Source of the DNA: Candidatus Omnitrophota bacterium
GTDB lineage: Bacteria; Omnitrophota; Gorgyraeia; JABMRG01; JAFGKX01
DNA length: 64,000 nucleotides
Direction of reading: 5' to 3'
Assembly: GCA_043797125.1 (NCBI GenBank)
Contig: JAZDPX010000012.1
Location: forward strand, 24,376-88,375
Within the stretch, counting starts at the first letter, position 1. Each line of letters begins with the position of its first letter. The notes under the pieces were generated by a model. That model searched no databases and was not told the DNA's origin. It saw nothing but the letters and a program-made list of their open reading frames with translations. Shown piece after piece: positions 2,331-62,128 of this stretch. The position numbers and the translations under genes are program-made.

Positions 2331-4025
2331 ATGGAAAAAGATATATTAAATATTTTGGTTGAGGAAGGGCTGATTACCTCTAAACAGCTCGATGAGATAA
2401 AAGGCGAACAAAAATTAACCAATCTTACGGCGCAGAAAATTTTGCTTAGCAAAGGCTATATAAGCGACGAGCAGCTTGCAAAAGCGCAAGGCAAGGTTAT
2501 GGATGTCGGGTATATAAAGCTCTCAGATATAAAAATTGACGCGCAGGTTATACAAATGGTGCCTATGGATGTGGCGCGCAGATACAACGCAGTTCCGGCA
2601 AAGATGCAGGGCAATGACCTTTACGTAGCTTTTATTAACCCCGCGGATTTACCAGCCAGAAACGAAATAAGACTGCTTACGGGCTGCGTAATAAAGCCGA
2701 TGATAACAACCGAAAAAGAGATAGTGCAGGCCATAAGCAAATATTATAAGGTTGAAGACTCCGGCAAACAGGCGCTTATCGATATGCGCGTTAAGGAGCT
2801 TAAGGACAAAAAGAAGGAAAAGGCCTCTGCCCAAACGCAGGAACAAGTAGACAAACTGGAAGACATGCCTGTTGTGCGCTTAGTAAACGATATTATTGCC
2901 GGAGCTATAAACGCAAAAGCCAGCGACATACATTTAGAGCCGCAGGATCCCGAGATGAGGGTCCGTTACAGGATAGACGGAATTTTACACGATGTAATGA
3001 AGGTGCCAAAACATATCGAGTCAGCCGTAATTTCCCGTATTAAGATTATGTCTAATCTGGATATTACCGAGAGACGACGCCCGCAGGACGGCCACATTAC
3101 AATAAAAAAAGAAGCCAAGGATTATGATTTCAGAATTTCAACGCTTTTGACTATAAACGGAGAAAAGGTAGTTATAAGGATTTTAGACAGGGCCAGCATG
3201 CTGATAAGCTTGGAAAGATTAGGTCTTACGTCATATGATCAGAAAATTTTCAGGTCATTGGTTGATAAGCCTTACGGCATGGTATTGGTTACAGGCCCGA
3301 CAGGAAGCGGCAAGACCACGACGCTATACGCTGTTTTAAGCCAGCTTAACAAAAACGAACGCAATATCATTACCATAGAAAATCCTGTTGAATACAAGCT
3401 AAACGGCATAAACCAGATTCAGGTGGATAGCGGAGTTAATATGACATTCGCAACAGGCTTAAGAACCATCTTAAGGCAGGATCCTGATATTATAATGGTC
3501 GGTGAAATCAGAGACAAGGAGACAGCGGAGATAGCAATTCATGCGGCATTGACAGGCCATTTGGTTTTTAGCACCCTGCATACCAACGATGCGCCCAGCG
3601 CTGTAACGCGTTTGGTAGATATGGGGGTGGAGCCGTTTTTAATCTCATCTACCGTAATAGGCGCGATAGCGCAGAGGCTGTGCAGGGTCATCTGCCCCGA
3701 ATGCAAACAGGAATATTCCCCGTCACAAGACGAACTAAATATTTTAGAACACAAAGCGCAGGATACAAAATTAGTCCATGGCAAAGGATGTGATTTCTGC
3801 TATCACACCGGTTTTAAGGGCCGCAGCGCCATTTTTGAAGTTATGAAGATAAGCGAGGCAATTGCGCAGCTTATATTGGATATGCGCCCGGTGCCGGAAA
3901 TAAAAGCGCAGGCAATGAAAGAGGGCATGAAGACGCTGAGGCAGAACGGCATACAGAAGGTGCTGGATAAAATTTCCACAATAGCAGAAGTAAAAAGGGT
4001 AGTTTATACAGAGGAAAATAAATAG
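2331..4025 (+). CDS. pilB: type IV pilus assembly ATPase PilB/GspE family
   Basis: N-terminal T2SSE_N-like domain. Walker A GPTGSGKTTT, Asp box, His box, tetracysteine motif CPECK...CDFC. Confidence 0.9.
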   Translation: MEKDILNILVEEGLITSKQLDEIKGEQKLTNLTAQKILLSKGYISDEQLAKAQGKVMDVGYIKLSDIKIDAQVIQMVPMDVARRYNAVPAKMQGNDLYVAFINPADLPARNEIRLLTGCVIKPMITTEKEIVQAISKYYKVEDSGKQALIDMRVKELKDKKKEKASAQTQEQVDKLEDMPVVRLVNDIIAGAINAKASDIHLEPQDPEMRVRYRIDGILHDVMKVPKHIESAVISRIKIMSNLDITERRRPQDGHITIKKEAKDYDFRISTLLTINGEKVVIRILDRASMLISLERLGLTSYDQKIFRSLVDKPYGMVLVTGPTGSGKTTTLYAVLSQLNKNERNIITIENPVEYKLNGINQIQVDSGVNMTFATGLRTILRQDPDIIMVGEIRDKETAEIAIHAALTGHLVFSTLHTNDAPSAVTRLVDMGVEPFLISSTVIGAIAQRLCRVICPECKQEYSPSQDELNILEHKAQDTKLVHGKGCDFCYHTGFKGRSAIFEVMKISEAIAQLILDMRPVPEIKAQAMKEGMKTLRQNGIQKVLDKISTIAEVKRVVYTEENK

Positions 4026-5114
4026 ATGCAGGAATTAAAACGCACATCAATATTATTCAGGACATACAGTAGATTATCTTCTGACGATCTGGTGACTTTT
4101 AGCCAGCAGTTTGCTTCTATGCTGGGAGCGGGGCTCTCACTTATAAGATGCCTGGACGCTTTGGAAAAGCAGACAGAAAACATGATTTTAAAAAAAGTGA
4201 TTAAGGATGTGCGCTTAAACATAGAAGGGGGCAGCTCATTTTCAGAGGCTCTGGCTAAACACCCTAAAGTCTTTTCGGATTTTTTCATAAGCCTTGTAAG
4301 CGCAGGCGAGAAAGCAGGTGTTATGCCCGAAGTTTTAGACAGGCTGGCAAGCTATTTGGAAAGCCAGCAGGCTTTAAGGCAAAAAGTAAAAAGCGCGTTT
4401 GCATACCCGACTATTGTAGGAGCGCTCGCGCTTTTGGTCATGGCGTTTTTGGTTGTGGTAATCGTGCCCATATTTAAGGATATATATGCGCGCATACATG
4501 TGCCGCTTCCCGCCCCGACTGTGGCGTTAATCACGGTGAGCAATATTGCCGTTAAATTCTGGTGGGCGTTGCTTTTTTTTGTTGCCGGAGTTATTATCGG
4601 GTATTATCGGATAAAAGATATACCTGTGGTAAGAAGGCAAATAGATAATTTTAAAATTAATATGCCGGCTTTTGGAAATGTTGTGCGAAAGGCGGCGGTT
4701 TCCCGTTTTATCAGGACATTCGGCGATATGTTAAGAAGCGGCGTTTCAGTGCTGCAGGCTATAGATGTTTCTGAAAAGGTCGCGAAAAATATTGTTATAT
4801 CGGAACTTGCGCGAAGAATGAAAGAAAATGTGCGCCGCGGAGGCTTAATTACCGAGCCGCTTCTGGGGGACCAGAGGATATTTCCTCCTTCGGTAGTGCA
4901 GATGATGGCTGCCGGCGAGGAAAGCGGCACTTTGCCGCATATGCTCCAGAAAAGCGCGGATACATTAGATAGGGATGTGGATACAGCGGTAAAAAGGCTT
5001 GTTGTTAAGGTAGAGCCTATTTTGACTATGCTGTTGGCGGCATTTGTCGCTTTTATCGCATTGGCGATATATCTGCCTATCTTTGATCTAATTAAACAAA
5101 TAAGCGCAAAATGA
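4026..5114 (+). CDS. pilC: type IV pilus inner-membrane platform protein PilC/GspF
   Basis: Two T2SS_F repeats, each followed by a TM segment. Immediately downstream of pilB. Confidence 0.8.
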   Translation: MQELKRTSILFRTYSRLSSDDLVTFSQQFASMLGAGLSLIRCLDALEKQTENMILKKVIKDVRLNIEGGSSFSEALAKHPKVFSDFFISLVSAGEKAGVMPEVLDRLASYLESQQALRQKVKSAFAYPTIVGALALLVMAFLVVVIVPIFKDIYARIHVPLPAPTVALITVSNIAVKFWWALLFFVAGVIIGYYRIKDIPVVRRQIDNFKINMPAFGNVVRKAAVSRFIRTFGDMLRSGVSVLQAIDVSEKVAKNIVISELARRMKENVRRGGLITEPLLGDQRIFPPSVVQMMAAGEESGTLPHMLQKSADTLDRDVDTAVKRLVVKVEPILTMLLAAFVAFIALAIYLPIFDLIKQISAK

Positions 5115-5240: not shown

Positions 5241-5272
5241 CAATCAGTACAAAATGAGAGGGGGTGAAGAGT

Positions 5273-5596
5273 ATGTTTAGCGAAAAAAGAGCTTTTACAT
5301 TGATAGAAATTCTGTTTGTAATAATTGTTATCGCGGTGTTGGCGGCAATTGCCATACCCAGAATTGTAACCAGCACGGCAACAGCAAAGACAAACGCCTG
5401 CTTGGCTAACCAGTCTATTATGGATACGCAGATTGAGCAATACCATATGGATACAGGAAACTGGCCTGGCACTTTAGCTACCGTTACGGGGAATACGTCA
5501 TATTTTCCAGATGGCGCGCCTACCTGTCCGGAAAGCGGCACTTATTCTATGAACGGAACTACGTATAGAACAAGTTGCAGCAATAGCGACCATTAA
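5273..5596 (+). CDS. type IV (major) pilin with prepilin N-terminal methylation motif
   Basis: Strong SD AGGGGGTG 8 nt upstream of ATG 5273. Leader MFSEKRA followed by FTLIEILFVIIVIAVLAAIAIP. C-terminal cysteines. ORF-track start 5264 (GTG) is less likely. Confidence 0.8.
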   Translation: MFSEKRAFTLIEILFVIIVIAVLAAIAIPRIVTSTATAKTNACLANQSIMDTQIEQYHMDTGNWPGTLATVTGNTSYFPDGAPTCPESGTYSMNGTTYRTSCSNSDH

Positions 5597-5600: not shown

Positions 5601-6038
5601 ATGAAGCGTAAGATTAGGGCGGGTTATACCTTTATCGAACTTGTGTTTGTCATATTGGTAGTGGCTATATTGGCGGCAGTAGCGCTATTTCGCCCTGGTT
5701 TTGATTTTACTGTCAAGGCCAAGGTAAGAACAGCTGCCCAACGCCTGGTTTCTGATTTGCGCCTTACCAGAACGCTGGCCGTTACAAATAATGAAAATTA
5801 TAAACTTGTAATTGACCAGAACAACAATGAATACAGTATTTTTGATTCGGGCAATACGCAGTCAGGCGCTACCAGGACCGTTGATTCTAATATTACGCTG
5901 ACCGGCGATACGGAATTTATTTTTCAAGCCCTTGGTAATGCCTCAAGCGGAAGCAGCGCTTCGCTTGAGGCAGAGTCGAATCAGTATAACATCGACGTAG
6001 TTTCAGTCACAGGCATGGTAAACATGCAAGAGCAATAG
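5601..6038 (+). CDS. prepilin-type minor pilin/pseudopilin
   Basis: MKRKIRAG followed by YTFIELVFVILVVAILAAVA, a class III signal and N_methyl motif. Resembles GspH/FimT. Confidence 0.75.
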   Translation: MKRKIRAGYTFIELVFVILVVAILAAVALFRPGFDFTVKAKVRTAAQRLVSDLRLTRTLAVTNNENYKLVIDQNNNEYSIFDSGNTQSGATRTVDSNITLTGDTEFIFQALGNASSGSSASLEAESNQYNIDVVSVTGMVNMQEQ

Positions 6039-6437
6039 ATGAATAAAAGAGGGTTTACGCTCATAGAGGCCATAGCATCCGTGCTTCTTATAGGGGTGGC
6101 TATTGTGCCCATAGCGAAGATTTTGACTCAAAGTTTTGTTATAAGTACCAAGGAAGAAAGATTTACCAAGGTCGTATTTTTGGCAGAAAGAAAAATTGAA
6201 GAGGTTAAGAACAAGGCCTTATATGATTTTAATACGGACAGGGATCAAAGCGCGACAGCATTTACCGATACAGGTTTTACAAATTATAAATATACAGTTG
6301 CTGATAATATTATTGAAGATGACGATTCGGCATTAAAGCAGATTCAGGTAATAGTCTGGCATGATGAGGATAACGATAATGCTGTTGATGCTAACGAAGA
6401 GTCAATTACGCTTGATACTAAAATTGCAGAAAGATAA
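6039..6437 (+). CDS. prepilin-type minor pilin/pseudopilin
   Basis: MNKRG followed by FTLIEAIASVLLIGVAIVP. Confidence 0.75.
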   Translation: MNKRGFTLIEAIASVLLIGVAIVPIAKILTQSFVISTKEERFTKVVFLAERKIEEVKNKALYDFNTDRDQSATAFTDTGFTNYKYTVADNIIEDDDSALKQIQVIVWHDEDNDNAVDANEESITLDTKIAER

Positions 6438-7551
6438 GGAAAAATTTGTAACGGGGTTTACACTTACAGAAGTGCTCTTTGTGGTGTTGTTGATTGCTTT
6501 ATTGATAGCGGTTGTGTATCCTTATCTTAGGGCTACGCACACCGGGTGGAAGACGCTTGACAGAAGGCAGGAAGTGATTCAGAATGCTCGCGTCGGAATG
6601 GATAAGATGAACAGATTGTTAAGAGAGGCAACCGGGTTTACCAGCGTAACAGGCGCTTCTGATAATAACGGCAGGATTGTTTTTTTGGATAAAGATTCAA
6701 ATACAGTTGAATTTAAAAAATATAACGACGGGACAAACGACATGTTGGGATATGTTACGGGCGCTAACACATATTCCCTGGCAGGGCCGATAGAGGCACT
6801 TACATTTACCTGCTATAAAGAAGACGGCGTGACTACGACTACCACAGCTTCTGATATTAAGTCTGTTGAAGTTAAAATGGTGGTTGCGGATAGCGAGTCA
6901 GAAGTGCCTTCGCAGACATTTATATCAAGAATCTTTTACCGGAAGGATACGGCAACCGCTATTGTAATAAACGAGATTTTATATTATCCGTGTAATGATA
7001 CAGGTTCTGATAAAGAGAGAGAATTTGAATTTATCGAAGTATATAATAACGGCGCCGAAAATATTGATCTTAACGGCTGGCAGATCCAGGATAGCGGCGG
7101 CACAGACACAGATATTATCGAGGCATATGGCGCAAGCTCAACAATATTGACCGCAGGCGAATACGCTGTTATCGGCGCAAAAGACACTAAGATATTTACC
7201 AAGCTGAATATAACATGCGACATTAAATTAAAAACCAATGATAACGAGTTTGGCGATAATAAGTTGGGAAATTCCAACGATACTGTTGTTTTAAAAAATT
7301 CAGGCGGCGTTCAGATAGACAGCGTTTCCTATTCATCAAGCTGGGGTGGCGGCTATAGCCAAACTGGCAACACAGGTACATCGTATTCATTGGAGAGAAT
7401 AGACCCATCCGGAACTTCCAATGATTCCGGCAACTGGGACCAGAATGAAAGCGCAAGCCCGAATGCTGTCGTTGTTTTGGGATCAGGCAGTAATAAAGTT
7501 ACAGTATCGTTTTATTGCACGCCGGGAGAACTAAACAGTGTATCTGACTGA
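6424..7551 (+). CDS. prepilin-type pseudopilin fused to a C-terminal lamin-tail domain (LTD)
   Basis: In-frame TTG at 6424 gives leader MQKDKEKFVTG followed by FTLTEVLFVVLLIALLIAV. The ATG at 6361 is out of frame with the upstream gene and gives a nonsense N-terminus. The C-terminal ~140 aa match LTD hallmarks INE...EFIEVYN...DLNGW...GEYAVI...VVLKNSGGVQIDSVSY. Confidence 0.7.
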   Translation: MQKDKEKFVTGFTLTEVLFVVLLIALLIAVVYPYLRATHTGWKTLDRRQEVIQNARVGMDKMNRLLREATGFTSVTGASDNNGRIVFLDKDSNTVEFKKYNDGTNDMLGYVTGANTYSLAGPIEALTFTCYKEDGVTTTTTASDIKSVEVKMVVADSESEVPSQTFISRIFYRKDTATAIVINEILYYPCNDTGSDKEREFEFIEVYNNGAENIDLNGWQIQDSGGTDTDIIEAYGASSTILTAGEYAVIGAKDTKIFTKLNITCDIKLKTNDNEFGDNKLGNSNDTVVLKNSGGVQIDSVSYSSSWGGGYSQTGNTGTSYSLERIDPSGTSNDSGNWDQNESASPNAVVVLGSGSNKVTVSFYCTPGELNSVSD

Positions 7552-7963
7552 TAAAAGAGGAGTAATGTTGCTGCTTGTAGTTTTTATTATTCTTGTTATG
7601 ACAGTTCTTGTAATCGGCTATCTGCAGGCTGCAACCACAGAGACAGAGATTATGCGAAACCACAAGATGTCTACCCAGGCGCTATATATCGCGGAAGCAG
7701 GAATAGAAGATGCAATATATACTATCAGGCAAACAGGAAACAGCCAGTGGGATGCTGGTTTCCAGAATAAAGAATTTCCAGCAGGTTCAGGCAACACCTA
7801 TACGGTTGTAGTTGATAATTCTAATTATCCGAGCGTTATTATAACGTCTGTTGCAACAGTTTCAAGCACATATCAAAGGGGAGTTGAGGCGGAGATAGCT
7901 GTTTCAGGCCCGCCTACATCCGCCCCCTATCCTGTTAGCATGAATTATTGGAAGGAAGCATAA
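7538..7963 (+). CDS. PilX/GspK-like minor pilin (PilX_N-type N-terminus)
   Basis: KRGVMLLLVVFIILVMTVLVIGYLQAATTETEIMRN resembles the PilX N-terminal domain. Lies in the pilin cluster. Confidence 0.6.
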   Translation: MYLTDKRGVMLLLVVFIILVMTVLVIGYLQAATTETEIMRNHKMSTQALYIAEAGIEDAIYTIRQTGNSQWDAGFQNKEFPAGSGNTYTVVVDNSNYPSVIITSVATVSSTYQRGVEAEIAVSGPPTSAPYPVSMNYWKEA

Positions 7964-7969: not shown

Positions 7970-9457
7970 ATGAGTATTTTTAAAAAAGGCACCCAGGCAG
8001 TTGGTTTGGATATCAACCAGGAAACAATCACTGTAATTGAGATTGCTAAGTCCAAACAGGGGTTTGTTCTTAAAAATATTGCAGCATGCCCTACGCCTTC
8101 CGGTTCAATAGAAAAAGGCATAATTGTTAACCCTAAAGCGCTTGGTAAAACGATTAAAGAGCTGTTTATCAAAAATAATATAAAATCAAGACAGGCAACT
8201 GTTGCGGTTTGGGGCCCCGGAGCGCTTGTTCATCTAAGCAAAATTCCAGCTATACCTGATAAAGAAATAAAAGAGGCATTAAAATCAGAGGTTTCCCATT
8301 ATATAGTTTTTGCCGGAGGCGAGACTGTTACGGATACATATAAACTTGAAGAGATAATAGATAATGGAGTTAAAAAAACTCAGGTATTGCTTGGTGTGGC
8401 AAAAAAGGATGTTGTTAATTCGTATGTTGAGGCCGCAAAATATGCCGGCCTTGAGTTAATCGCCATAGACATAGGCTGTTTAGCTGTTATGAGGGCATTA
8501 TATTCCAACGCATTGAGGGCTCAAAGCAATGAAGCAGTTGTTTTGGCGACTGTTGAAACGGAAAACACGGTCCTTTCCGTGCTAAGAGGAGGGATTTTAT
8601 CATATTCTTATAATATTGACGCGGGAAGCAGAGATAGGGAATTTGCATCTAAGCTAACTTTTGAGCTTAAGTCTGTTATTAACTATTATCAATCTGAACA
8701 TACAGAGGTTGTCAAAAAAATAGTCATAGCAGGCGAGATACAGAAACTCGGGGCAATAGAAAAGGATTTAAGCGCGGAGTTTGCGGGAATAGGCGTGGAA
8801 AAAGGCCTTGTTGGCGCTGATATTCAATACGACAAAAGCGCTTCTCCATTTTCTGTCAGGGCTGTCGGCCTTGCCATGCTGGCAAAAGGAGTAGGCGAGT
8901 ATCCGGTCAAGATAAACCTTCTTCCGGCAGAAGAGATAAAAATTCAAGAAGCAAAAATCCAGGTGCTTAAATTCTTGATTGCTCTGTGCTTTTTAATATT
9001 TTTAATATTAATATCCTTTGCAGCTATAAAATTATCTATTAAAGCAACAGCGTCAAAGATACTTGTTATTCAACAACAGTTGGAGAAGCCAAGCCCGCAG
9101 CTACAAAGGCTTTTGGGGATTGAGCAGGGCGCAAGAGCATATACAGGCGAAATAGAAAAGCAAAACGGCATTATTGACACGGCGGGTAAAGCTAAGGCAT
9201 CCGATTTGTTAGACGAGATAAGGCGCCTGACGCCAAAAGATGCGCGGCTGATTAAATTAACAAAAAAGGAGAACACGGTAATCTTTAGCGGCGAGGCAGT
9301 TTCGCAGGAAGCGGTATTTAATTTTGTTCGCAGCCTGAAAGGGTCAGGTTATTTTGAAGAAGCAAAGCTTCAAACAGCGGAATCTAAAAGCGATCAGGAA
9401 AAGACTTATATTGATTTTGCCATAATCTGTCAATTAAGTTCCGGAGAGAACCAATGA
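7970..9457 (+). CDS. PilM-PilN fusion protein (actin-like ATPase domain plus PilN TM/periplasmic domain)
   Basis: N-terminal ~350 aa are PilM-like (VGLDINQETITVIEI..., actin-like fold). Then INLLPAEE, the PilN signature INLLP, followed by a TM helix and a coiled-coil segment. Confidence 0.7.
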   Translation: MSIFKKGTQAVGLDINQETITVIEIAKSKQGFVLKNIAACPTPSGSIEKGIIVNPKALGKTIKELFIKNNIKSRQATVAVWGPGALVHLSKIPAIPDKEIKEALKSEVSHYIVFAGGETVTDTYKLEEIIDNGVKKTQVLLGVAKKDVVNSYVEAAKYAGLELIAIDIGCLAVMRALYSNALRAQSNEAVVLATVETENTVLSVLRGGILSYSYNIDAGSRDREFASKLTFELKSVINYYQSEHTEVVKKIVIAGEIQKLGAIEKDLSAEFAGIGVEKGLVGADIQYDKSASPFSVRAVGLAMLAKGVGEYPVKINLLPAEEIKIQEAKIQVLKFLIALCFLIFLILISFAAIKLSIKATASKILVIQQQLEKPSPQLQRLLGIEQGARAYTGEIEKQNGIIDTAGKAKASDLLDEIRRLTPKDARLIKLTKKENTVIFSGEAVSQEAVFNFVRSLKGSGYFEEAKLQTAESKSDQEKTYIDFAIICQLSSGENQ

Positions 9458-10089
9458 CGTTTAATCCGCTTGAAGGCGTTTTAAAGTTCGTGTATAAATT
9501 AAAAATATACCAAAGGCTAATTCTTGCTTTGCTGACAATGTTTTTATGTTGCTATGCCGTGTATAATTCTCTTATTTCAGCGCAGCTTATTAATTTAAAT
9601 TCCATAAAAAAGCAGCTTATGGTGCAGGCAAACCTTATAGAGTCTAAGAGAGAGAAAACAAAACAGCTGCTGCAGCTCGAGGACGGTTATAATAAACTCC
9701 GCGAAGACATAAACAAAAAGAATATGAGATTTTTTAGCGACGAAGAAGCTATTGATTTTTTCAAAAATCTAAACAAATTAGTCGGTCAAGACTCCGGCAA
9801 CGAGCTCATTTTTATAAAGCCGCTGTCGGAAGATACTATCGGTGAATCATTGATAGACGGGGCCAGGTATATTTACAAAAGGTCAGATGTTCAGTTAATT
9901 ATAAGTGGAGGGTTTAGCTCCATATATGAACTTTTCAAGAAATTATCGGATTTTAATAAAGTTATTAGCATAAAGGATTTTGACATAGAACTCAAGCAGA
10001 GTGAAAACATGATGCTTAAATCTGATTTTGTCTTAAGTATATATATTTTAAGCCACAAGGAAGAAAAGACAATTGAAAACAACGCATAA
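9454..10089 (+). CDS. pilO: PilO-like inner-membrane pilus assembly protein
   Basis: N-terminal TM helix, coiled-coil region, position after pilMN. Call rests on architecture and position. Confidence 0.5.
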   Translation: MTFNPLEGVLKFVYKLKIYQRLILALLTMFLCCYAVYNSLISAQLINLNSIKKQLMVQANLIESKREKTKQLLQLEDGYNKLREDINKKNMRFFSDEEAIDFFKNLNKLVGQDSGNELIFIKPLSEDTIGESLIDGARYIYKRSDVQLIISGGFSSIYELFKKLSDFNKVISIKDFDIELKQSENMMLKSDFVLSIYILSHKEEKTIENNA

Positions 10090-10474
10090 AATAAATATTA
10101 GGTATTTAATCATTTTAATCGCCGTAGCAATGTTGGCTTGCGTTGTAAGCTTAGAAGGCGTATATTCGCAGGATACTGCAGAGAAACCCAAAAAGGAAGA
10201 TCTTGCACCCGATATATACGGCAGATACGACCCGTTTGCGCCAATAGGAATGGATTATAACGGTTCATCCGCTAATAAAATGCTGGGCCTTACTTTGGAA
10301 GGCGTGATAACCGGGTCTACAAAACCTCTTGCAATAATAAACAACACAATTGTAAAAGAAACCGACATAATAGAGGGTAAAAAAATTAAAAAGATTCAGA
10401 CAGATAGAATTACTATTGAAGATGAAAACGGCAAGGAACACGAACTTAAACTGTTTAAAGAAGAGGATAAATAG
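10073..10474 (+). CDS. pilP: PilP-like pilus assembly lipoprotein
   Basis: Signal or TM segment. YDPF motif (PilP-type RDPF hallmark) followed by a beta-rich C-terminus LTLEGVITG...AIINNTIV... Confidence 0.5.
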   Translation: MKTTHKINIRYLIILIAVAMLACVVSLEGVYSQDTAEKPKKEDLAPDIYGRYDPFAPIGMDYNGSSANKMLGLTLEGVITGSTKPLAIINNTIVKETDIIEGKKIKKIQTDRITIEDENGKEHELKLFKEEDK

Positions 10475-12892: not shown

Positions 12893-12968
12893 GCCCGCAT
12901 AGCTCAATTGGTAGAGCAGCGCCCTCTTAAGGCGAAGGTTCCAGGTTCGATTCCCGGTGCGGGTACCA
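12893..12968 (+). tRNA. tRNA-Lys (anticodon CUU)
   Basis: Cloverleaf by eye: acceptor GCCCGCA/TGCGGGT, D-arm GCTC/GAGC, anticodon loop CTCTTAA, T-loop TTCGATT, 3' CCA encoded. Confidence 0.9.
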
Positions 12969-13108
12969 TGAACCATTCGACAAAACCTTTGGTTTTGTCT
13001 CAGGTTCATGGCACAGCCATGAAAGTTTTGTCGAATGATGAATGCCCTGTACCCGAGCCCCGATGCTTCGGGGCGAGTGGTTCAGGGCAACCATGCTTGC
13101 TTGTATTC

Positions 13109-13193
13109 GCGGATGTGGCGAAATTGGCAGACGCGTGCGGCTTAGGACCGCATGGAGCAATCCATGGGGGTTCAACTCCCTCCATCCGCACCA
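13109..13193 (+). tRNA. tRNA-Leu (anticodon UAG), long variable arm
   Basis: Acceptor GCGGATG/CATCCGC, anticodon loop CTTAGGA, variable arm TGGAGCAATCCATG, T-loop TTCAACT, CCA encoded. Closely resembles canonical tRNA-Leu. Confidence 0.9.
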
Positions 13194-13232
13194 GCGAATT
13201 TTGCTACGCAAAATTTGTGAAACTAAAAAACG

Positions 13233-13307
13233 CGGGTGTAGCTCAGTTGGTAGAGCATTACGTTGCCAACGTAAATGTCGTCGGTTCGAACCCGATCACC
13301 CGCTCCA
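13233..13307 (+). tRNA. tRNA-Gly (anticodon GCC)
   Basis: Acceptor GCGGGTG/CACCCGC, anticodon stem TTACG/CGTAA with loop TTGCCAA, T-loop TTCGAAC, CCA encoded. Confidence 0.9.
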
Positions 13308-20387: not shown

Positions 20388-21479
20388 ATGGATCCACAAA
20401 ATTATTTAAAGATGATGCTGGATAAGGGGGCTTCAGATCTTTATTTTAAGGTAGGCAGCCCTCCATGCCTTAGGGTAAATGATGAGCTCAAGCTCTGCGA
20501 CGAAAATAGACTCAAACCCGAGGATACGGAAGCTGTCGCTAAGAAGATTATCGGTAAGGAGAAATTCGATGAGTTTATCCAGAAAAGAGAACTTGATGCA
20601 GCTTATAGCGTTTCTGGTGTGGGGAGATTCAGGGTTAATATGTATATACAAAGAGGTACCGTATCAATAACGCTGCGTTCTATCAAAAGCCAAATTTCAT
20701 CTTTTGCCGAATTAAATTTGCCTATAGATATAATGCAGAGGCTTTCCTCCTGCCAGAGGGGCCTTGTATTGATAACAGGGCATGCCGGCAGCGGCAAAAG
20801 CACCACGTTAGCGGCTATCATTGATTATATAAATGAAAATACAGCGAGGAATATAATAACCATAGAAGATCCCATTGAATTTTTACATCGCGATAAAAAA
20901 TCAATAATATCGCAAAGAGAAGTTGCTACAGATACCGATAGCTTCAACGTGGCATTGCGCCATGTTATACGCCAGTCTCCGGATGTGATACTTATCGGCG
21001 AAATGAGGGATTTAGAGAGCATACAGACAGCCATGATGGCGGCTGAGACGGGGCATTTGGTTTTAAGCACACTGCATACTGTTGATACAACCCAGACAAT
21101 CGAGAGGATTATTAATTATTTTCCGACCCACATGCATCATCAGATAAGGATGCAGTTCGCGCTTCTTTTCGCGGGTGTTATCTCAATGAGGCTTATTCCG
21201 CGTTGCGACAAACCCGGGCGCGTTCCCGCATGCGAAATAATGCTGCCGTCTCCCACGGTAAAAAAGATGATACACGAAGGCAGGATAAATGAGATAATAG
21301 ACGCCATTCAGGACGGCGCCATCTTTAGGATGCAGTCTTTCAATCAGGCGCTTATTGACTGGGTTAAGAAAGGCGTCGTAAGCAAAGAATCCGCTCTTGA
21401 AAACGCCAGTAACCCCGATGAGCTAAGGCTGGAATTTGCCGATATTTTTTCCGGCAAAAAAACACATGAAAAACAGTAA
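20388..21479 (+). CDS. pilT: PilT-family type IV pilus retraction ATPase (variant Walker A GHAGSGKST)
   Basis: T2SSE core with Asp and His boxes. Length and organisation are PilT-like. Confidence 0.8.
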   Translation: MDPQNYLKMMLDKGASDLYFKVGSPPCLRVNDELKLCDENRLKPEDTEAVAKKIIGKEKFDEFIQKRELDAAYSVSGVGRFRVNMYIQRGTVSITLRSIKSQISSFAELNLPIDIMQRLSSCQRGLVLITGHAGSGKSTTLAAIIDYINENTARNIITIEDPIEFLHRDKKSIISQREVATDTDSFNVALRHVIRQSPDVILIGEMRDLESIQTAMMAAETGHLVLSTLHTVDTTQTIERIINYFPTHMHHQIRMQFALLFAGVISMRLIPRCDKPGRVPACEIMLPSPTVKKMIHEGRINEIIDAIQDGAIFRMQSFNQALIDWVKKGVVSKESALENASNPDELRLEFADIFSGKKTHEKQ

Positions 21480-21493: not shown

Positions 21494-22543
21494 ATGCTGG
21501 ATATTAAGGATCTTTTAAGGCACGCTTCGGAAAAAGGCGCTTCTGATTTGCATATTACGCAGGACATGCCACCTATGTTGAGAATAGACGGAGAATTGCA
21601 CACAACAGCATTTGATATTTTGAACAGAGAGCAGACCAAAAAAATGGTTTATGGTATTTTAAATGATAAGCAGAAAGTGAGGTTCGAGGAAAATCTAGAA
21701 CTGGATCTTTCCCTTTATGTGCCGGATTTGTGCCGTTTTAGGGTAAACGTGCACATGCAAAAAGGCAGCGTCGAGGCGGCATTCAGGGTTATACCGAATA
21801 CCGTGCAGACCGTAGAAAAACTGGGCCTTCCCCGCATAGTATCTGAATTGGCAAGGCTGCCAAACGGGCTTGTGCTGGTAACAGGGCCCACAGGAGTAGG
21901 CAAGAGCACAACGCTCGCTTCTATGGTGGACCAGGTTAACAATGAAAGGCACTGCCATATTATCAGCGTAGAAGATCCGATAGAATATGTGCATCAGAAT
22001 AAAAACAGCATAGTGAAGCAAAGAGAGGTGGGTATTGATACCTTGTCTTTTTCCAACGCGCTAAAGCACGCGCTCAGGCAGGACCCTAACGTTATATTGG
22101 TAGGCGAAATGAGGGATCTGGAAACCATATCTACGGCAATAACAGCTGCTGAAACAGGGCATCTAGTGTTAAGCACTCTTCATACGCCTGATGCCCCGCA
22201 GACCATAGACAGGCTTATAGATATATTTCCTCCTCATCAGCAGGAACAGATAAAAGTGCAGCTATCAGGCTGTTTTCAGGGAGTTATATGCCAGCAGCTG
22301 CTTGTAAGAAAAGATGGCAGGGGAAGGATTCCTTCGTGCGAGATAATGACAGGTACATCAGCGGTCAGAAGCCTTATACGGGAGCACAAGACAGAACAGC
22401 TTATGACAGTTATACAGACAAGCGGCAAGCACGGCATGATAACGATGGATAAATCCATAAAAAAGCTGTATCTAGACGGCCTGATAGATCTTGAGACAGC
22501 GCATGATAAAATAAAAGACAAGGCAGAGTTTGAAAAGTTATGA
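21494..22543 (+). CDS. pilT: PilT/PilU-family twitching motility ATPase
   Basis: Walker A GPTGVGKSTT, Asp and His boxes. The AVRSLIRE motif near the C-terminus resembles the PilT AIRNLIRE signature. Confidence 0.85.
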   Translation: MLDIKDLLRHASEKGASDLHITQDMPPMLRIDGELHTTAFDILNREQTKKMVYGILNDKQKVRFEENLELDLSLYVPDLCRFRVNVHMQKGSVEAAFRVIPNTVQTVEKLGLPRIVSELARLPNGLVLVTGPTGVGKSTTLASMVDQVNNERHCHIISVEDPIEYVHQNKNSIVKQREVGIDTLSFSNALKHALRQDPNVILVGEMRDLETISTAITAAETGHLVLSTLHTPDAPQTIDRLIDIFPPHQQEQIKVQLSGCFQGVICQQLLVRKDGRGRIPSCEIMTGTSAVRSLIREHKTEQLMTVIQTSGKHGMITMDKSIKKLYLDGLIDLETAHDKIKDKAEFEKL

Positions 22544-25798: not shown

Positions 25799-26599
25799 TT
25801 ACAGCCCTCTCGCCAATGTTAACAGAAACACCGATTTAGTTCCGGCCTTTTTTAAAACAGATGCGCATTCGTCGGCAGTGGCAAACGTGGTTGCAACATC
25901 GTCCACTAGCAGCACAGCCTTTTTGTTAAATATATTTTTGTCTTTAACGGAAAACGCGCCTTTAATATTGTCCATGCGCTGAAACCTGCTTAAATGCGTC
26001 TGCTGGGCGGTGTATCTGTTCCTTTTTAACGCATTATAAACAAGCGGCAGATTGAATATGTTAGATACGCGGCTGGATATAAGCAGCGATTGGTCAAACC
26101 CTCTTTCGCGTATTTTTCTTTTGTGCAGCGGAACAGGCACTACCATATCTATGGCCTGTGTATCCATGTGCGTTTTTATGAATTGCGTCATTAATTCATC
26201 AAACAGGCAGACCAGGTATCTGTTTTGTTTATATTTAAAATTGTGTATAAGTTCTTTAATCAGCCCGTCGTAATTACAGCAGGAAAACGCCTTATCAAAG
26301 CTGTAATTTGTTCCCATGCATTCTCCGCATACTGCGCTTAAGTTTACCGCGCCGCACAAAGAATGGCCGCATCTTATGCAGAACGGAGGCTTGTTTATTG
26401 TTATGGTTTTAAAGCAGCTTTCGCACAGGTACAATTTATTTTTGTAATCGAGGCTCTTGCCGCAGCCTTGGCAATTTTTTGGATAGATCAAATTCAAAAA
26501 TGCCAAAAAGGCATCTTTTGCCGGGTTTACAACTGTCAACATAGAGGATAATATAACACTAATTATTAGAGATGTCAAAAGGAGATTTTTCTCTTGCAT
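25799..26599 (-). CDS. comF: ComF/ComFC-family competence protein (zinc-ribbon plus phosphoribosyltransferase domain)
   Basis: N-terminal CQGCGKSL...CESC and CIRCGH...CGEC zinc ribbons. C-terminal PRTase motif VLLVDDVATTFATADE. Confidence 0.7.
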   Translation of the reverse strand: MQEKNLLLTSLIISVILSSMLTVVNPAKDAFLAFLNLIYPKNCQGCGKSLDYKNKLYLCESCFKTITINKPPFCIRCGHSLCGAVNLSAVCGECMGTNYSFDKAFSCCNYDGLIKELIHNFKYKQNRYLVCLFDELMTQFIKTHMDTQAIDMVVPVPLHKRKIRERGFDQSLLISSRVSNIFNLPLVYNALKRNRYTAQQTHLSRFQRMDNIKGAFSVKDKNIFNKKAVLLVDDVATTFATADECASVLKKAGTKSVFLLTLARGL

Positions 26600-56135: not shown

Positions 56136-56574
56136 TTCAAGAAGAGCCCCCATAGTGCTTTCCCAGAAAATAGCGATGTTAATTATAGTTGTGTTTTCTT
56201 TATCTGCTTCAGTCAGATTATTCAGTTACGCGGTTGATTTCAACGGTGCGGATATAAAGAATAACAACATAAGCCGATATGAAAGCCGCTTTAGCGAAAT
56301 CAGGAAAATGTTAGCTAGCGAAAAGGTTGTCGGGTATATTACGGAAAAGACTCCGGAAGAAATCACTGCTGATGCAAACGCTACGGCTGAGTATTTTTTG
56401 ACACAATACGCTATTTCGCCGACGGTTGTCGATAATAAAAAATTTGACGGTCTCGTCGTAGGAAATCTTCACTCCGGCTATTTATCTGGTAATGCCAGCA
56501 CTAAAAAACTTTCTTTAATAAAAAATTTCGGAAACGGTGTAATGCTATTAAAGAGTGTAGGAGAATCAGAATGA
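56116..56574 (+). CDS. membrane-anchored hypothetical protein
   Basis: N-terminal TM helix. No recognisable motif. Confidence 0.3.
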   Translation: MSKDMNNSRRAPIVLSQKIAMLIIVVFSLSASVRLFSYAVDFNGADIKNNNISRYESRFSEIRKMLASEKVVGYITEKTPEEITADANATAEYFLTQYAISPTVVDNKKFDGLVVGNLHSGYLSGNASTKKLSLIKNFGNGVMLLKSVGESE

Positions 56575-57992
56575 TAATAGCTTCCTTATTCGCTTTTCTT
56601 TTGCCGGCAATGATAGGCCTACTAATAATTTATTTATCTTGGCCGGATCAATACTCAATTTTTAAAAATCCCCTGATTAAATTTTCACTTGCGATAGGCT
56701 TAGGATTTGGAATATCGTCATTATGTTTTTTTATTTGGGTCATCATTCTTGGCCCTAAGAACGGATTTGTTCCTTCCATAATGTCAGAATTTTTATTATT
56801 AATCGTATTATCTATTATCGCCTTGCGGCACCTCAAGAAAAACGCCGGATCTCAAATGCAAGATTGCGGTATCCGCCCAAATCCCGTTAAGCACCAGCTC
56901 CTCTACAAGATTCTTTTAAGCGTTACTTGCGTTGTTTTCGCAATGACGGCGGTATCTTTTATATGCATGTCACTTAAAGAACCGCACGGAGGTTGGGACG
57001 CGTGGGCCATATGGAATATGCATGCGCGTTTCCTATTTAGAGGCGACCTTGATTGGCGCAATGTATTTTCTGCAGCAATAGACTGGACACATTCTGATTA
57101 CCCTTTTCTTATTCCAGGGCTAATAGCTCGCTGTTGGAGATTTATAGGCAAGGAGATGGTGTGGCCGCCTTGTGCAATAGCCATGCTTTTTACGCTAGGG
57201 ACAGCTGGCGTAATCATTTCTTCACTTTCTATAATAAAAGGTAAAATAGATGGCCTTTTGGGCGGTTTGATGTTAATGGGAACATCTTTTTTTATACAAC
57301 ACGGCGCCTCGCAGTATGTGGATGTGCCGCTGTCATTCTTTTTTTGTTCGGTTTTGGCGCTATTTAGTATCATAGATTTTTCATATCACGATAGGCAAAA
57401 ACTTTTACCTTTAGCGGGCATGATGGCGGCTTTTTCAGCATGGACCAAAAATGAAGGTATTGTATTTCTTTTTTCGCTTATCGCGGCACGATTTATAATA
57501 GTTATAAGATCCAGAGGTTTTAAGGCCTATATGAAAGAAACAGGGTTATTGATAATAGGCATAATGCCGGTCGCTCTTGTTTTGGCTTATTTTAAGTTGT
57601 ATTTAGCGCCGCGCAACGACCTTTCCAGAGGTAATTTTTTAGCAACCGTAACAGATTTTCCCAGATATCTTTTTATCATAAAGGCCTTCCTTGGCCAGTT
57701 TATACATTTTGGAGCTTTTTTCATAGGAGCAATACCTCTTTTATTTATATACCTGTTTATATCAGGAGTAAGCATAAAGAAAAAATATATTTCAGTTCCA
57801 GCGACCTCATTTATAGTTCTTTGTCTGATGACCTGTTTTTACTTCCTTGTGTATCTTATTACGCCACGCGACCTAAGCTGGCATCTGGGCACATCTCTTG
57901 ATCGTCTGTTCCTGCAATTATGGCCCAGCACAATATTGTTTATTTTTCTTATAGCCAAACCTATTGAAGGAGACCAGCTAACATTACAATGA
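56571..57992 (+). CDS. polytopic integral membrane protein, hypothetical (possible GT-C-like glycosyltransferase)
   Basis: At least 11 predicted TM helices. Start codon overlaps the upstream stop. No diagnostic motif recognised. Confidence 0.4.
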   Translation: MIIASLFAFLLPAMIGLLIIYLSWPDQYSIFKNPLIKFSLAIGLGFGISSLCFFIWVIILGPKNGFVPSIMSEFLLLIVLSIIALRHLKKNAGSQMQDCGIRPNPVKHQLLYKILLSVTCVVFAMTAVSFICMSLKEPHGGWDAWAIWNMHARFLFRGDLDWRNVFSAAIDWTHSDYPFLIPGLIARCWRFIGKEMVWPPCAIAMLFTLGTAGVIISSLSIIKGKIDGLLGGLMLMGTSFFIQHGASQYVDVPLSFFFCSVLALFSIIDFSYHDRQKLLPLAGMMAAFSAWTKNEGIVFLFSLIAARFIIVIRSRGFKAYMKETGLLIIGIMPVALVLAYFKLYLAPRNDLSRGNFLATVTDFPRYLFIIKAFLGQFIHFGAFFIGAIPLLFIYLFISGVSIKKKYISVPATSFIVLCLMTCFYFLVYLITPRDLSWHLGTSLDRLFLQLWPSTILFIFLIAKPIEGDQLTLQ

Positions 57993-59892: not shown

Positions 59893-61341
59893 ATGAAATA
59901 TAAAATCTTTGTCAGTGGTGCACAGAAGGAGTTGAAGAAAGAACGCCGGGCAGTCAAAGAGTTTATCCGTAAGGATGCGCTTTTATCAGAATATTTCGAT
60001 GTTTTTCTTTTTGAGGATTCTCCCGCCAAGAGTAAATCAGCCGAAGTAGCTTACATCGAAGAAGTCCGCAAAAGCGACATTTACATCGGCATTCTCGGAC
60101 AGCAATATGGCGGCTCCGGAAAAGAAAAGATGTCGCCGACAGAAGCAGAATTCCGCGAAGCCAAGGTGAAACACAAGGAAATATTGATCTATATTAAAGG
60201 TCAAAACACCGCAGATAAGCTCCGTGACGGTGGTATGCAGGAATTTATAACGGAAATTAAAAATCCGAAGGCAGGGTACAGTTATGGAAGATTTGATACT
60301 GCTACCGAATTAACCAATCTGGTTTACGAGAGCCTGATATCCTTTCTTAAAGAAAAAGGTGAGATTGGAAAGGCGGGATTTGATCAACGAATTTGCGAGG
60401 GGGCTAAGCTATCCGACATTGACGAGAATAAGGTTAAATGGTTTTTAAAGACAGCGCGGTCAAAACGTAATTTCCCGCTTGGGTTGGATGCTTCCGTGAC
60501 CGACATTTTTATTCATTTGAAACTACTCAAGGACGGTAAGCTGACTAATGCCGCCATTTTATTATTCGGCAAGAATCCGCGAAAGTTTTTTGATCAGGCA
60601 AAGATCAAGTGTGTGCAATTGCCCAGCACTGAGGTCGTGAAGCCGTTTTCGTCGTATCATATTTATGAGGAAGAAAACCTCTTTGAACAAGTCGATAAGG
60701 CAGTATCGTTTGTTTTGGATGCCATTAAATTTCCTGTCATTCAACAATCGCATACAGTGCAGGTAGCGCGGCCTCGTGAGATACCTGAGTTTGCTATCCA
60801 TGAAGCAATCGTTAATGCTGTAGCGCATCGTGATTACAATACAACGTCATCTGTTCAGGTGATGGTTTTTCTCGATCGCGTTGAGATATGGAATTCCGGA
60901 ACGCTTCCCGGGAATCTCAAAGTGGAGGATCTAAGAAAACCACATTCTTCACATCCGTCAAATCCGACGTTAGCGAGTGTTCTATTTTTTGGAGACTATA
61001 TACAACAGGTGGGATCCGGCACAACGGAAATGATTCGACAGTGTAAAGAACATGGACTTCCGGAGCCGGAGTTCATTTCAGTGCGAAATCTTGAGTTTAA
61101 GACGATACTGGCAAGGGATGTCTTTACGGAAACTAATCTTGCCCAAATGGGGCTTAATGACCGTCAGGTTAAGGCTATCAAGTATATCAAGGAGCATAGG
61201 CAAATTTCGCGTAAAGACTATGTTAGTTTGGTATCTATATCTCCTCGGCAAGCTCTAATTGATCTCACAGAACTGGTAGAGAAGAAAGTCTTAATATTGA
61301 TAGGCAAGGGAAGATCGTCTAAATATACATTGCGCAAATAA
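59893..61341 (+). CDS. DUF4062 - AlbA_2 (Schlafen-like divergent AAA) - HATPase_c_4 - wHTH protein, putative defense/regulatory ATPase
   Basis: N-terminus KIFVSGAQKELKKERRAVKEFI is DUF4062-like. Middle region has the AlbA_2 pattern. C-terminus GSGTTEMIRQCKEHGLPEPEF is the HATPase_c_4 signature, followed by a winged helix. Confidence 0.7.
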   Translation: MKYKIFVSGAQKELKKERRAVKEFIRKDALLSEYFDVFLFEDSPAKSKSAEVAYIEEVRKSDIYIGILGQQYGGSGKEKMSPTEAEFREAKVKHKEILIYIKGQNTADKLRDGGMQEFITEIKNPKAGYSYGRFDTATELTNLVYESLISFLKEKGEIGKAGFDQRICEGAKLSDIDENKVKWFLKTARSKRNFPLGLDASVTDIFIHLKLLKDGKLTNAAILLFGKNPRKFFDQAKIKCVQLPSTEVVKPFSSYHIYEEENLFEQVDKAVSFVLDAIKFPVIQQSHTVQVARPREIPEFAIHEAIVNAVAHRDYNTTSSVQVMVFLDRVEIWNSGTLPGNLKVEDLRKPHSSHPSNPTLASVLFFGDYIQQVGSGTTEMIRQCKEHGLPEPEFISVRNLEFKTILARDVFTETNLAQMGLNDRQVKAIKYIKEHRQISRKDYVSLVSISPRQALIDLTELVEKKVLILIGKGRSSKYTLRK

Positions 61342-61412: not shown

Positions 61413-62114
61413 GTGAAGGAAAGAAAAGCGACAGGTATAAAGACTTGGCCGGAGGATGATAGGCCGCGTGAGAAGTTGCTCAAGAAGGGTGCAGGGGCTT
61501 TGAGTAATTCAGAGCTTCTGGCTATTCTTCTTCGCACCGGCACGCAAGGCACCAGCGCAATTGACCTTGCTCGCAAGGTTTTGAAGAAATTCGGCACGTT
61601 CCGGAACATGGCGCATACGGATTCGCGCGATTGGAAGGATCTCAAGGGTTTAGGCGGGGCTAAGATTGCCCACATTCAGGCCGCGCTTGAAATCGGGCGG
61701 CGCTATCGCGAGGACGATGTGTCCACCGGGAAGCAGAAGATCGCCTCTGCCAAGGATGTTGTAGATATCGTCATGCCTCAGCTCCGCGACCTTAAGACGG
61801 AGGTGTTTAAGGTCGTTTACCTTGATAGTAATAACCGTATTATCGACATCGTGGATACCGCGGTTGGAACCGTTGATCAGGCATTCCCGATTGTCCGTGA
61901 AATAATCCACGCCGCCTTGCAGAAATTCGCGAAATCAATCGTTTGTGCTCACAATCACCCATCTGGCGAGGTTAATCCAAGCCGGGGCGATATCACTTTT
62001 ACGAATGAGCTTTATAACGCTGGGAAACTTATGCAGGTCGATATTTTGGATCACCTCATAGTAGGAAATGACAAATTTTACAGTTTTGCCGATGAAAATA
62101 AACTTGTAAGTTGA
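61413..62114 (+). CDS. radC: RadC-like JAB/MPN domain protein
   Basis: Helix-hairpin-helix [18 protein letters not shown] motif [14 protein letters not shown]. Stop overlaps the hsdM start region. Confidence 0.85.
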
Positions 62115-62128
62115 GGGAAGGGAATACT

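Follow-up and report, generated by a model that had tools for sequence, protein, structure and literature searches.

The gene at 6424..7551 (+ strand) encodes a protein made of two modules, an N-terminal pilin module and a C-terminal lamin-tail domain (LTD). It lies in a pilin operon of the window, the 64,000-nucleotide stretch of Candidatus Omnitrophota DNA that was analysed. We consider it probable that the protein is a bimodular type IV pilin, in which a minor pilin of the GspJ class located at the filament tip carries an acidic LTD, the latter being most likely an adhesin for a ligand other than DNA. Raynaud et al. (2021, PNAS, PMC8179133) showed that S. sanguinis PilB (pilin + vWA) and PilC (pilin + lectin) are modular pilins, and the pilin + LTD architecture (IPR012902-IPR001322) is already catalogued in their Dataset S1, with 6 uncharacterised proteins. 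The LTD-pilin is thus a further example of this known design, with which it shares a two-domain model and an inter-module linker (residues 172-179). It differs from PilB and PilC of S. sanguinis in its effector, which is an LTD, and in its carrier, which is a GspJ-class pilin encoded in a T2SS-ordered operon of a diderm. Our literature search returned no relevant link of an LTD with a pilin or with ComEC. Bacterial LTDs are very common on secreted and surface proteins, more than 34,000 cluster representatives being recovered by the profile search, yet they have no established function in general (PMC6085458).

A pilin module in fusion with a lamin-tail domain

Translation from TTG 6424, within an enclosing ORF at 6361..7551, gives 375 residues and begins with a class III leader peptide, MQKDKEKFVTG (6424..6456, + strand), followed by FTLTEVLF…; prepilin peptidase is predicted to cut after Gly11. 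As the first-pass annotation had noticed, the gene read from this codon overlaps the upstream gene, whose stop codon is at 6435-6437, by 14 nt, and the codon is in frame. Its claim that the class III signal exists only with TTG 6424 was too strict, since four in-frame ATGs (6361, 6364, 6379 and 6388) and TTG 6412 also precede the G↓F cleavage site (the arrow marks the cut), and every one of these starts leads to the same mature protein. The identical protein in NCBI (P0001, 'lamin tail domain-containing protein' of Ca. Omnitrophota) has 379 aa and starts at TTG 6412. Equivalents of ATG 6388 and TTG 6424 are kept in all four close loci and that of TTG 6412 is not. A well-spaced Shine-Dalgarno sequence (GAGGA) is found only at ATG 6379, a start made unusable in the L001 orthologue by an in-frame stop; TTG 6424 is devoid of such a sequence, but it is conserved and nearest to the stop of the upstream gene. 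Shine-Dalgarno motifs therefore do not settle the start, which, as judged from the nucleotide sequence, may be ATG 6388, TTG 6412 or TTG 6424.

The pilin module (6457..6936, + strand; mature residues F12-F171) consists of an α1 helix (residues 14-67) and a β-sheet (residues 71-171). With profiles, the outcome of the N_methyl search that had been suggested for it was mixed. PF07963 (N_methyl) gave 14.2-15.5 bits on the LTD-pilin, under its cutoff of 21.2; TIGR02532 (IV_pilin_GFxxxE, NCBIfam) gave 16.7 bits, just over its cutoff of 16.3, and all 19 aligned family members matched PF07963 at E ≤ 0.1, the best one at 1.1e-8. The LTD-pilin has the short charged leader with Gly/Ala at position -1 and the F/L/V/M at +1, and its homologues carry the sites KG↓L, RG↓V, HG↓V, SG↓L, RA↓L, RG↓F, LG↓F and NA↓F. 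The motif [G/A]↓[F/L/V]T..E is conserved across the family: [G/A] at -1, T at +2 and E at +5 occur in every full-length homologue, T13 (+2) and E16 (+5) being invariant in the 19-sequence alignment, and the glutamate at +5 is accompanied by a hydrophobic α1-N helix of ~20 residues. In addition, the family profile aligns to the α1 helices of solved pilins (E = 1.7e-7).

In the MSA-based AlphaFold model, the globular domain has a GspJ-type fold, and the best structural matches of the pilin module are the T2SS proteins GspJ, XcpW and EpsJ. The gene stands between I-like and K-like minor pilin genes in the window and in six related loci. No match of the window protein to T2SSJ, GspJ or PilW was obtained with Pfam and NCBIfam, and ComGF was matched by only two of the 19 homologues (E = 3.5e-4); membership in the GspJ/PilW/ComGF class therefore rests on fold and position and not on sequence family. 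Compared with GspJ, XcpW and EpsJ and with the GspI-J-K tip complex (3ci0), sequence identity is just 10-13% and the Pfam T2SSJ match is missing. Unlike the LTD-pilin, canonical GspJ has no additional C-terminal domain, and the K partner found here lacks the α-domain of the GspK present in the tip complex.

The C-terminal module (6961..7536, + strand; residues 180-371) is joined to the pilin module by the linker YRKDTATA (6937..6960, + strand). The search with PF00932 that had been proposed as a check gave an LTD match well above threshold (E = 5e-19; 69.1 bits for a gathering cutoff of 34.3), covering residues 177-304 and profile positions 5-108 of 109. The LTD is thus at the C-terminus as initially described, but its length had been underestimated at about 140 residues: the folded domain extends over residues ~180-371 (~190 aa), of which the Pfam model covers the first 128 only. 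Single-sequence AlphaFold prediction was unusable (pLDDT 41.5) and the MSA-based model (pLDDT 89.7) was used instead. It shows the helix and sheet, a low-confidence linker (pLDDT 65 for the block of residues 171-180, adjoining blocks being above 90) and a β-sandwich; with a pTM of 0.60 (AF2), it is uncertain how the two modules are oriented to each other. In this predicted model, the Ig-like β-sandwich can be superimposed on the lamin tail. The Ig-fold is shared with the tails of eukaryotic lamins A/C and B1 (1ifr, 3gef, 7dtg), from which the present LTD differs as a bacterial extracellular version with extra C-terminal strands and the motifs W…S.xR…NW…TPGxxN, the bacterial signature TPGxxN closing the domain; the cellular contexts are unrelated. 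HMM scores, the conserved motif and a two-domain model matching both GspJ and the lamin Ig-fold together bear out the fusion of a minor (pseudo)pilin with an LTD that the first-pass annotation had proposed.

The gene is indeed the fourth of five pilin-like genes, which begin at 5264, 5601, 6039, 6424 and 7538. All are on the + strand, in the order G-H-I-J(LTD)-K, between PilB/PilC and PilMN/PilO. The assembly ATPase PilB/GspE (2331..4025, +; TIGR02538 PilB 626 bits, GspE 596 bits) and the platform protein PilC/GspF (4026..5114, +; PilC 324 bits, GspF 318 bits) are followed by a ComGC/GspG-like major pilin of 110 aa (5264..5596, +), which probably starts at ATG 5273, preceded by a Shine-Dalgarno motif; it scores 24.6 bits with N_methyl, 50.7 bits with ComGC, its best family match, and 40.9 bits with GspG, the last two under their cutoffs. 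Next come a GspH/ComGD-like minor pilin (5601..6038, +; PF12019 GspH 27.7 bits for a cutoff of 21, N_methyl 21.4 bits, with ComGD, XpsH and GspH matches) and a minor pilin at the GspI/PilV/ComGE position (6039..6437, +; N_methyl 23.5 bits, weak PilV, ComGE and TIGR02532 matches), whose assignment as I is based mainly on gene position. Downstream, a GspK/PilX/ComGG-like minor pilin gene (7538..7963, +; PilX_N 23.9 bits, just under the cutoff of 25.5; GspK E = 2.7e-5; ComGG E = 3e-4) shares 14 nt with the end of the LTD-pilin gene, and its orthologues in L007 and L009 retain its KG↓V motif. The alignment subcomplex is represented by a PilM-PilN fusion (7970..9457, +; PilM_2 E = 9.4e-20, PilN E = 4.5e-13), PilO (9454..10089, +; E = 4.8e-7) and a small PilP/GspC-like protein (10073..10474, +; weak T2SSC match, E = 0.0015). 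Neither a prepilin peptidase (PilD-like) nor a secretin was found among the window ORFs scanned.

The window also contains two retraction ATPases of the PilT/PilU family (20388..21479 and 21494..22543, +; TIGR01420 428.9 and 469.2 bits for a cutoff of 319.1, with T2SSE Pfam matches) and a ComF-family gene (25799..26599, - strand). These genes, mentioned in the first-pass annotation as part of the locus, are real, but they lie 13-19 kb away and are not operon partners. We rejected them as functional evidence, tRNA, PTS, SAM-cycle and other housekeeping genes separating them from the pilin operon.

Related loci and exchange of the C-terminal module

The position of J in the order G-H-I-J-K is kept in seven loci, window included, from Omnitrophota/PVC, WOR-1 and Dictyoglomus. 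The six other loci are L001 (a PVC MAG), L004 (Dictyoglomus), L007, L011 (WOR-1), L012 and L013; in L011, a secretin and an ATPase of the size of PilT lie upstream, and the operon of L012 ends with a T2SSC-like gene followed by a secretin. The genome search, made with a narrower alignment, returned 3 loci only and so under-samples the taxonomic distribution. In a full-length profile search against 1.84 billion representatives, giant multi-LTD proteins dominate, and the pilin + LTD architecture accounts for 14 of the best 150 matches.

Orthologous pilin modules (40-72% identity) occur bare, with a β domain of ~105 aa, with a β-helix-like module, with two LTDs, or with an LTD that bears an insertion of ~140 aa. 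The pilin-only orthologues, P0206-P0211, stop exactly at the linker (…YRND followed by the stop codon), and K is enlarged where J is bare. The ~140-aa insertion is located in a loop of the LTD of P0005, P0130 and P0131; it has no Pfam match, and its match to legume lectins is not significant (E = 0.31). Since orthologous pilin modules are found either bare or with varied modules, the LTD behaves as a swappable cargo module, which fits the 'modular pilin' concept established with PilB and PilC of S. sanguinis. Between close orthologues, identity is 60-71% for the LTD and 68-76% for the pilin module; because the LTD evolves no faster than its carrier, there is no signature of diversification driven by a ligand.

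Alternative roles of the lamin-tail domain

In the order PilB-PilC-G-H-I-J-K-(PilM-N fusion, of GspL-like topology)-PilO-(GspC/PilP-like), the operon mirrors gspEFGHIJKLM, so that a non-extended, T2SS-type pseudopilus is conceivable: the filament would stay periplasmic and the LTD of the J subunit would touch secreted cargo or the secretin. The continuation of L012 into a T2SSC-like gene and a secretin, the T2SS proteins GspJ, XcpW and EpsJ as best structural matches, and the almost equal scores of the ATPase as GspE and as PilB are consistent with such a filament. We nevertheless hold a periplasmic pseudopilus to be unlikely.

The LTD could also be a structural passenger, i.e. a generic Ig-like spacer or cap with no specific ligand, which stabilises or shields the tip complex or sizes it for the secretin. 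Long tandem arrays of 7-20 LTDs, an arrangement typical of stalk or spacer modules, occur in giant surface proteins; the LTD and the pilin module show about equal rates of conservation, and no ligand-binding motif was recognised in the LTD. However, close orthologues (P0206-P0211) are devoid of any C-terminal module, and the LTD is therefore dispensable for the tip complex as such. Its replacement by unrelated folds and the ~140-aa domain inserted in its loop are better explained by diversification of an effector, and a purely structural role appears quite unlikely to us.

The first-pass annotation had evoked capture of DNA by the LTD. A pilus-displayed LTD would then bind extracellular DNA for uptake or foraging, in the manner of ComP, FimT and T. 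thermophilus ComZ. Like the LTD-pilin, these are minor pilins that carry or form an additional module displayed on the filament. In the L008 relative the same pilin carrier bears the β-helix-like module, reminiscent of the β-solenoid of ComZ (PMC8179133). LTDs recur in secreted nucleases: the proteins of the Shewanella ExeM and Vibrio Xds family, secreted or exposed at the surface, bear a PF00932 LTD as the LTD-pilin does, ExeM without its LTD degrades DNA more slowly in vitro (PMC6085458), and the LTDs of halophile DNases were proposed to be DNA-binding modules (PMC4486849). Two PilT genes and a ComF-family gene in the window, together with ComGC as the best, though below-cutoff, family match of the major pilin, point in the same direction.

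However, ComZ, ComP and FimT bind DNA by electropositive surfaces, whereas this LTD is strongly acidic, with a net charge of -17 and a pI of 4.07, and most LTDs of the family have charges of -14 to -29. Ten LTD columns are conserved as acidic, and the sole invariant basic residue, R325, is part of the generic LTD signature. Only four columns are basic in at least half of the sequences, and the alignment predicts no conserved basic patch of the kind expected for an electropositive DNA receptor. In ExeM and Xds, OB-fold and EEP nuclease domains follow the LTD, and the LTD-pilin has no nuclease domain; moreover, ExeM does not need its LTD to degrade DNA in vivo (PMC6085458). The suggested link with nucleases did not hold either: the nearest LTD relatives are cell-surface or T9SS-type proteins, in which CHU_C, FlgD_ig, CARDB or PKD domains and no nuclease domains are present. 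As for competence, ComEA, ComEC and DprA are absent from all seven syntenic operons; none was detected among the window ORFs scanned or in the flanks of the six related loci, the only candidate being the distant ComF-family gene, 18 kb off on the opposite strand among Lpt and glycolysis genes. Finally, orthologues replace the LTD by unrelated modules or do without it. Given the marked acidity of the LTD, its lack of a conserved basic patch and the absence of DNA-uptake genes from the operons, capture of DNA is disfavoured and we regard it as very unlikely; we are equally sceptical of a DNA receptor acting, for instance, through divalent-cation bridging by the conserved acidic residues. If true, DNA capture would explain the recurrence of LTDs on secreted nucleases, and uncultivated ultra-small bacteria and Dictyoglomus would possess minor pilins of a new class that capture DNA. 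In a related and likewise improbable reading, the pilin at the J position would be a platform for exchangeable modules, and its LTD, β-helix or Ig cargo would set host or prey specificity in host-dependent Omnitrophota.

That the protein is no pilin at all but an LTD protein held in the membrane, with an N-terminal hydrophobic helix that acts as a mere signal anchor, as the Pfam N_methyl score of 14.2 bits against a gathering threshold of 21.2 and the uncertain start codon could suggest, is already disfavoured and hardly credible.

Proposed mechanism and significance

In the adhesin model that we prefer, the class III signal would target the LTD-pilin to the inner membrane, where a prepilin peptidase, not seen among the window ORFs scanned, would cut after Gly11 and leave the N-terminus FTLTE…. 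The GspJ/PilW/ComGF-class module would then form a priming complex with the neighbouring H-, I- and K-like minor pilins, and this complex would initiate the filament on the PilB-PilC-PilMN-PilO machine and remain at its tip. Display at the tip, which the first-pass annotation had put forward along with display at the filament surface, can reasonably be expected of a GspJ-class protein whose gene keeps its place in the order H-I-J-K. Attached by its linker of ~8 residues, the acidic Ig-like β-sandwich would be an 'effector' module that travels to the tip as a passenger. There it would most likely serve as an adhesin for a ligand other than DNA, for example a surface glycan, a protein, or a mineral or cation-rich surface of a partner cell or substrate, and PilT-type ATPases would retract the filament.

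Although the pilin-LTD fusion does not overturn current understanding, the orthologous operons illustrate clearly how cargo is swapped in nature on a tip pilin of the GspJ class. With them, the 'modular pilin' idea reaches diderm phyla that have been little studied (Omnitrophota/PVC, WOR-1 and Dictyoglomota). The fusion would place a single LTD at a defined and accessible site, the filament tip, and in a small operon; since D. thermophilum, a cultivable relative, carries an orthologue (P0006), the family could be a simple test bed for the ligands of LTDs.

The two modules of the LTD-pilin

In the product of the LTD-pilin gene (6424-7551, + strand), the Pfam model of the lamin-tail domain (LTD, PF00932) matches residues 177-304 with E=5e-19 and 69.1 bits, clearly over its gathering cutoff of 34.3 bits. 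AlphaFold on the single sequence gave an unusable model (pLDDT 41.5); with a 27-sequence alignment we obtained a two-module model (pLDDT 89.7, pTM 0.60) with a pilin helix (residues 14-67) and beta-sheet (71-171), a block at 171-180 where the pLDDT dips to 65 and, beyond it, the beta-sandwich of the LTD (180-364). By Foldseek, the C-terminal half resembles the lamin A/C Ig-fold (1ifr, 3gef; probability 1.0, TMt 0.60-0.62), and it is an LTD. The folded domain outruns the Pfam match and reaches the bacterial-LTD motif 'TPGxxN' (residues 366-371). Cys195 (7006-7008, YYPC) and Cys365 (7516-7518, YCTPG) are kept only in the four closest orthologues (the window protein, P0002, P0003 and P0004), where a disulfide may staple the first and last LTD strands.

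The N-terminal half scores 14.2 bits with Pfam N_methyl (PF07963), below the cutoff of 21.2, whereas NCBIfam TIGR02532 (IV_pilin_GFxxxE) barely passes (16.7 against 16.3 bits). Among 19 aligned family members, PF07963 is matched by all at E<=0.1 (best 1.1e-8) and ComGF by two, and T13 and E16 are invariant; [G/A](-1), T(+2) and E(+5) are present in all full-length and N-terminal homologues, and prepilin cleavage is probable. In a profile alignment, the family matches alpha1 helices from solved pilin structures (E=1.7e-7). Since we found no T2SSJ/GspJ sequence-family match for this half, its placement as a GspJ-class pilin rests on modelled fold and gene position. The pilin plus LTD architecture proposed in the first-pass annotation is thus borne out by TIGR02532, the conserved cleavage motif, the LTD HMM and the model.

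Reading frame and start codon

The gene lies in an ORF at 6361..7551 (+ strand), with TTG 6424 in frame. From this codon the product has 375 aa and begins with MQKDKEKFVTG followed by FTLTEVLFVVLLIALL…, and the 14-nt overlap previously described is confirmed, the upstream gene ending at 6437. Making the prepilin signal conditional on this TTG was too strict, since the open frame reaches back to 6361 and other in-frame starts (ATG 6361, 6364, 6379 and 6388; TTG 6412) precede the G|F site. The mature protein is identical whichever of them is used. P0001, the identical NCBI protein (379 aa; 'MAG: lamin tail domain-containing protein [Candidatus Omnitrophota bacterium]'), begins at TTG 6412.

We aligned the start region with those of three close loci (L001, L002 and L003) and observed that counterparts of ATG 6388 and TTG 6424 are kept in all four, that TTG 6412 reads TTA in two, and that in L001 a stop interrupts the frame ahead of the ATG. 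A convincing Shine-Dalgarno motif is absent at every candidate but ATG 6379, which has one, yet this codon is not conserved. Distant homologues have short leaders (MKKG|L, MKNKG|V) and start at or beside the upstream stop. We therefore tentatively favour TTG 6424, which would give an 11-residue leader. Coding constraint from the C-terminus (…TKIAER*) of the overlapping upstream gene may explain some of the start-codon conservation; at the GFTLTE motif, downstream of the overlap, conservation must stem from the LTD-pilin gene. At L003 (72-200, protein P0003), the leader and cleavage motif occurs twice (…KDKNGFTPP…GKERAGFTLPE), perhaps by partial tandem duplication of the orthologue's 5' end.

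The operon and its relatives

The LTD-pilin, first annotated as the fourth pilin-like gene, stands fourth in a row of five such genes (Pfam and NCBIfam): a ComGC/GspG-like major pilin (G, start 5264), a GspH/ComGD-like minor pilin (H, 5601), a PilV/ComGE/GspI-position minor pilin (I, 6039), the LTD-pilin (J-LTD, 6424) and a PilX_N/GspK/ComGG-like minor pilin (K, 7538). Two putative response regulators, PilB/GspE and PilC/GspF precede them; a PilM-PilN fusion, PilO and a small PilP/GspC-like protein follow. For the major pilin (5264-5596), ATG 5273, with gagggggtg ahead of it, is a more probable start than GTG 5264; the -1 residue of this protein is Ala instead of Gly (KRA|FTLIE). In 7970-10474, PilM and PilN form one 495-aa fusion of GspL-like topology, followed by PilO and the small T2SSC-like protein. 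Gene order parallels gspEFGHIJKLM, while the family matches are PilM, PilN and PilO; this order speaks for a periplasmic T2SS-like pseudopilus, a reading of the filament that we nevertheless consider unlikely. No secretin occurs in the window; in the related loci L011 and L012, the cluster includes one.

A putative histidine-kinase-like ORF (7-1548) and two putative single-domain response-regulator-like ORFs (1551-1937, 1944-2312) lie directly upstream of PilB. Dedicated regulation is suggested by the related loci: ahead of the operon, L001 and L013 carry Response_reg pairs, and L011 has response regulators and histidine kinases.

The operon order with an LTD pilin in the same slot was found in six related loci: L001 (PVC-group MAG, 60% identity), L004/L005 (P0006, 532 aa, two LTDs, named for Dictyoglomus thermophilum in UniRef), L007 (a MAG), L011 (protein cluster with WOR-1 MAG proteins; secretin and PilT-sized ATPase just upstream), L012 (metagenome contig; T2SSC-like gene and secretin close the operon) and L013 (a MAG; insertion in the LTD). 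ComEA, ComEC and DprA are absent from these six operons and from that of the window.

The ComF gene and two PilT paralogs assigned to this locus do exist, but they lie 13-19 kb away and outside the operon: PilT-family genes at 20388-21479 and 21494-22543 (TIGR01420, 429 and 469 bits) and a ComF-family gene at 25799-26599 (minus strand). tRNAs, PTS, SAM-cycle and further housekeeping genes lie between; several ORFs overlapping the tRNA cluster Lys(CTT)-Leu(TAG)-Gly(GCC) (12893-13307) are spurious. Elsewhere, a 473-aa ORF (56571-57992) has no Pfam match at E<=1e-5, and a DUF4062 + HATPase_c_4 protein (59893-61341), followed by an HsdM methylase of a type I restriction-modification system (62111-63679), may form a defence islet at the window end.

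Cargo exchange and the role of the LTD

We searched 1.84 billion cluster representatives with a profile and obtained 34,687 matches, mostly LTD-only; pilin+LTD proteins account for 14 representatives (334-565 aa) among the best 150. Among the LTD-only matches are giant proteins of Bacteroidota and Melioribacteraceae that carry 7-20 LTDs. Such proteins, P0047-P0062 (2,000-6,900 aa, 7-20 tandem LTDs; those named are from Melioribacteraceae and Bacteroidota MAGs), dominate the LTD profile matches and look like surface fibres built from LTDs.

In a separate search with the pilin module alone (carrier identity 40-72%), the carrier was found bare (P0206-P0211 and L009; 167-182 aa, with '…YRND*' closing the protein precisely where the linker lies), fused to a ~105-aa beta domain (P0007-14, P0214), with a ~270-aa beta-helix-like 'SGSP'-repeat module (L008, 59-1378), with two LTDs, or with an LTD broken by a ~140-aa loop insertion (P0005, P0130, P0131; L013 9733-11085). 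The insertion had no Pfam match, and its sole PDB sequence match was a non-significant legume lectin (E=0.31). Where J is bare, in L009 (6001-7612), the K-like gene has 345 aa against 141, and cargo apparently shifts from one tip subunit to another. Because the carrier occurs bare or with other modules, and K is enlarged where J is bare, the LTD behaves as exchangeable cargo on a probable tip-complex subunit.

That the LTD is an inert Ig-like spacer seems to us improbable. A DNA receptor, as the suggested DNA capture would require, is about as improbable on sequence evidence: the module has a net charge of -17 and a pI of 4.07, ten conserved columns are acidic, and the sole invariant basic residue, R325, belongs to the generic LTD signature. 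Family charges are mostly -14 to -29, with one orthologue at +2, so the charge itself is not conserved. Outside the family, the nearest LTDs belong to surface proteins of the CHU_C, FlgD_ig, CARDB or PKD kind, none of them nucleases, and in ExeM, the one studied nuclease with an LTD, the domain helps activity in vitro and is dispensable in vivo, its role being called unresolved (PMC6085458). On charge, conserved columns, relatives and ExeM, and taking S. sanguinis PilB and PilC (PMC8179133) as the analogy, we favour the LTD as an adhesin or ligand-binding passenger module that would be displayed at the filament tip; its ligand class would be other than DNA. Of the first-pass interpretation, architecture and likely display therefore stand, while the start-codon condition and DNA capture do not.

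With its pilin module joined by a linker to a non-pilus domain, the LTD-pilin shares the modular pilin design of Raynaud et al. 2021, whose Dataset S1 (PMC8179133) lists six IPR012902-IPR001322 (pilin + LTD) proteins and one IPR012902-IPR013545-IPR001322 protein; public records title such proteins 'lamin tail domain-containing' or 'LTD domain-containing', and our literature search found no paper tying LTD to pilins functionally. It is thus a member of a known design and not a new kind. What is added is the placing of the carrier in the GspJ class, a conserved position in the operon, shared by Omnitrophota/PVC, WOR-1 and Dictyoglomus, a series of cargo swaps on the carrier and a charge-based case against DNA binding by the LTD.
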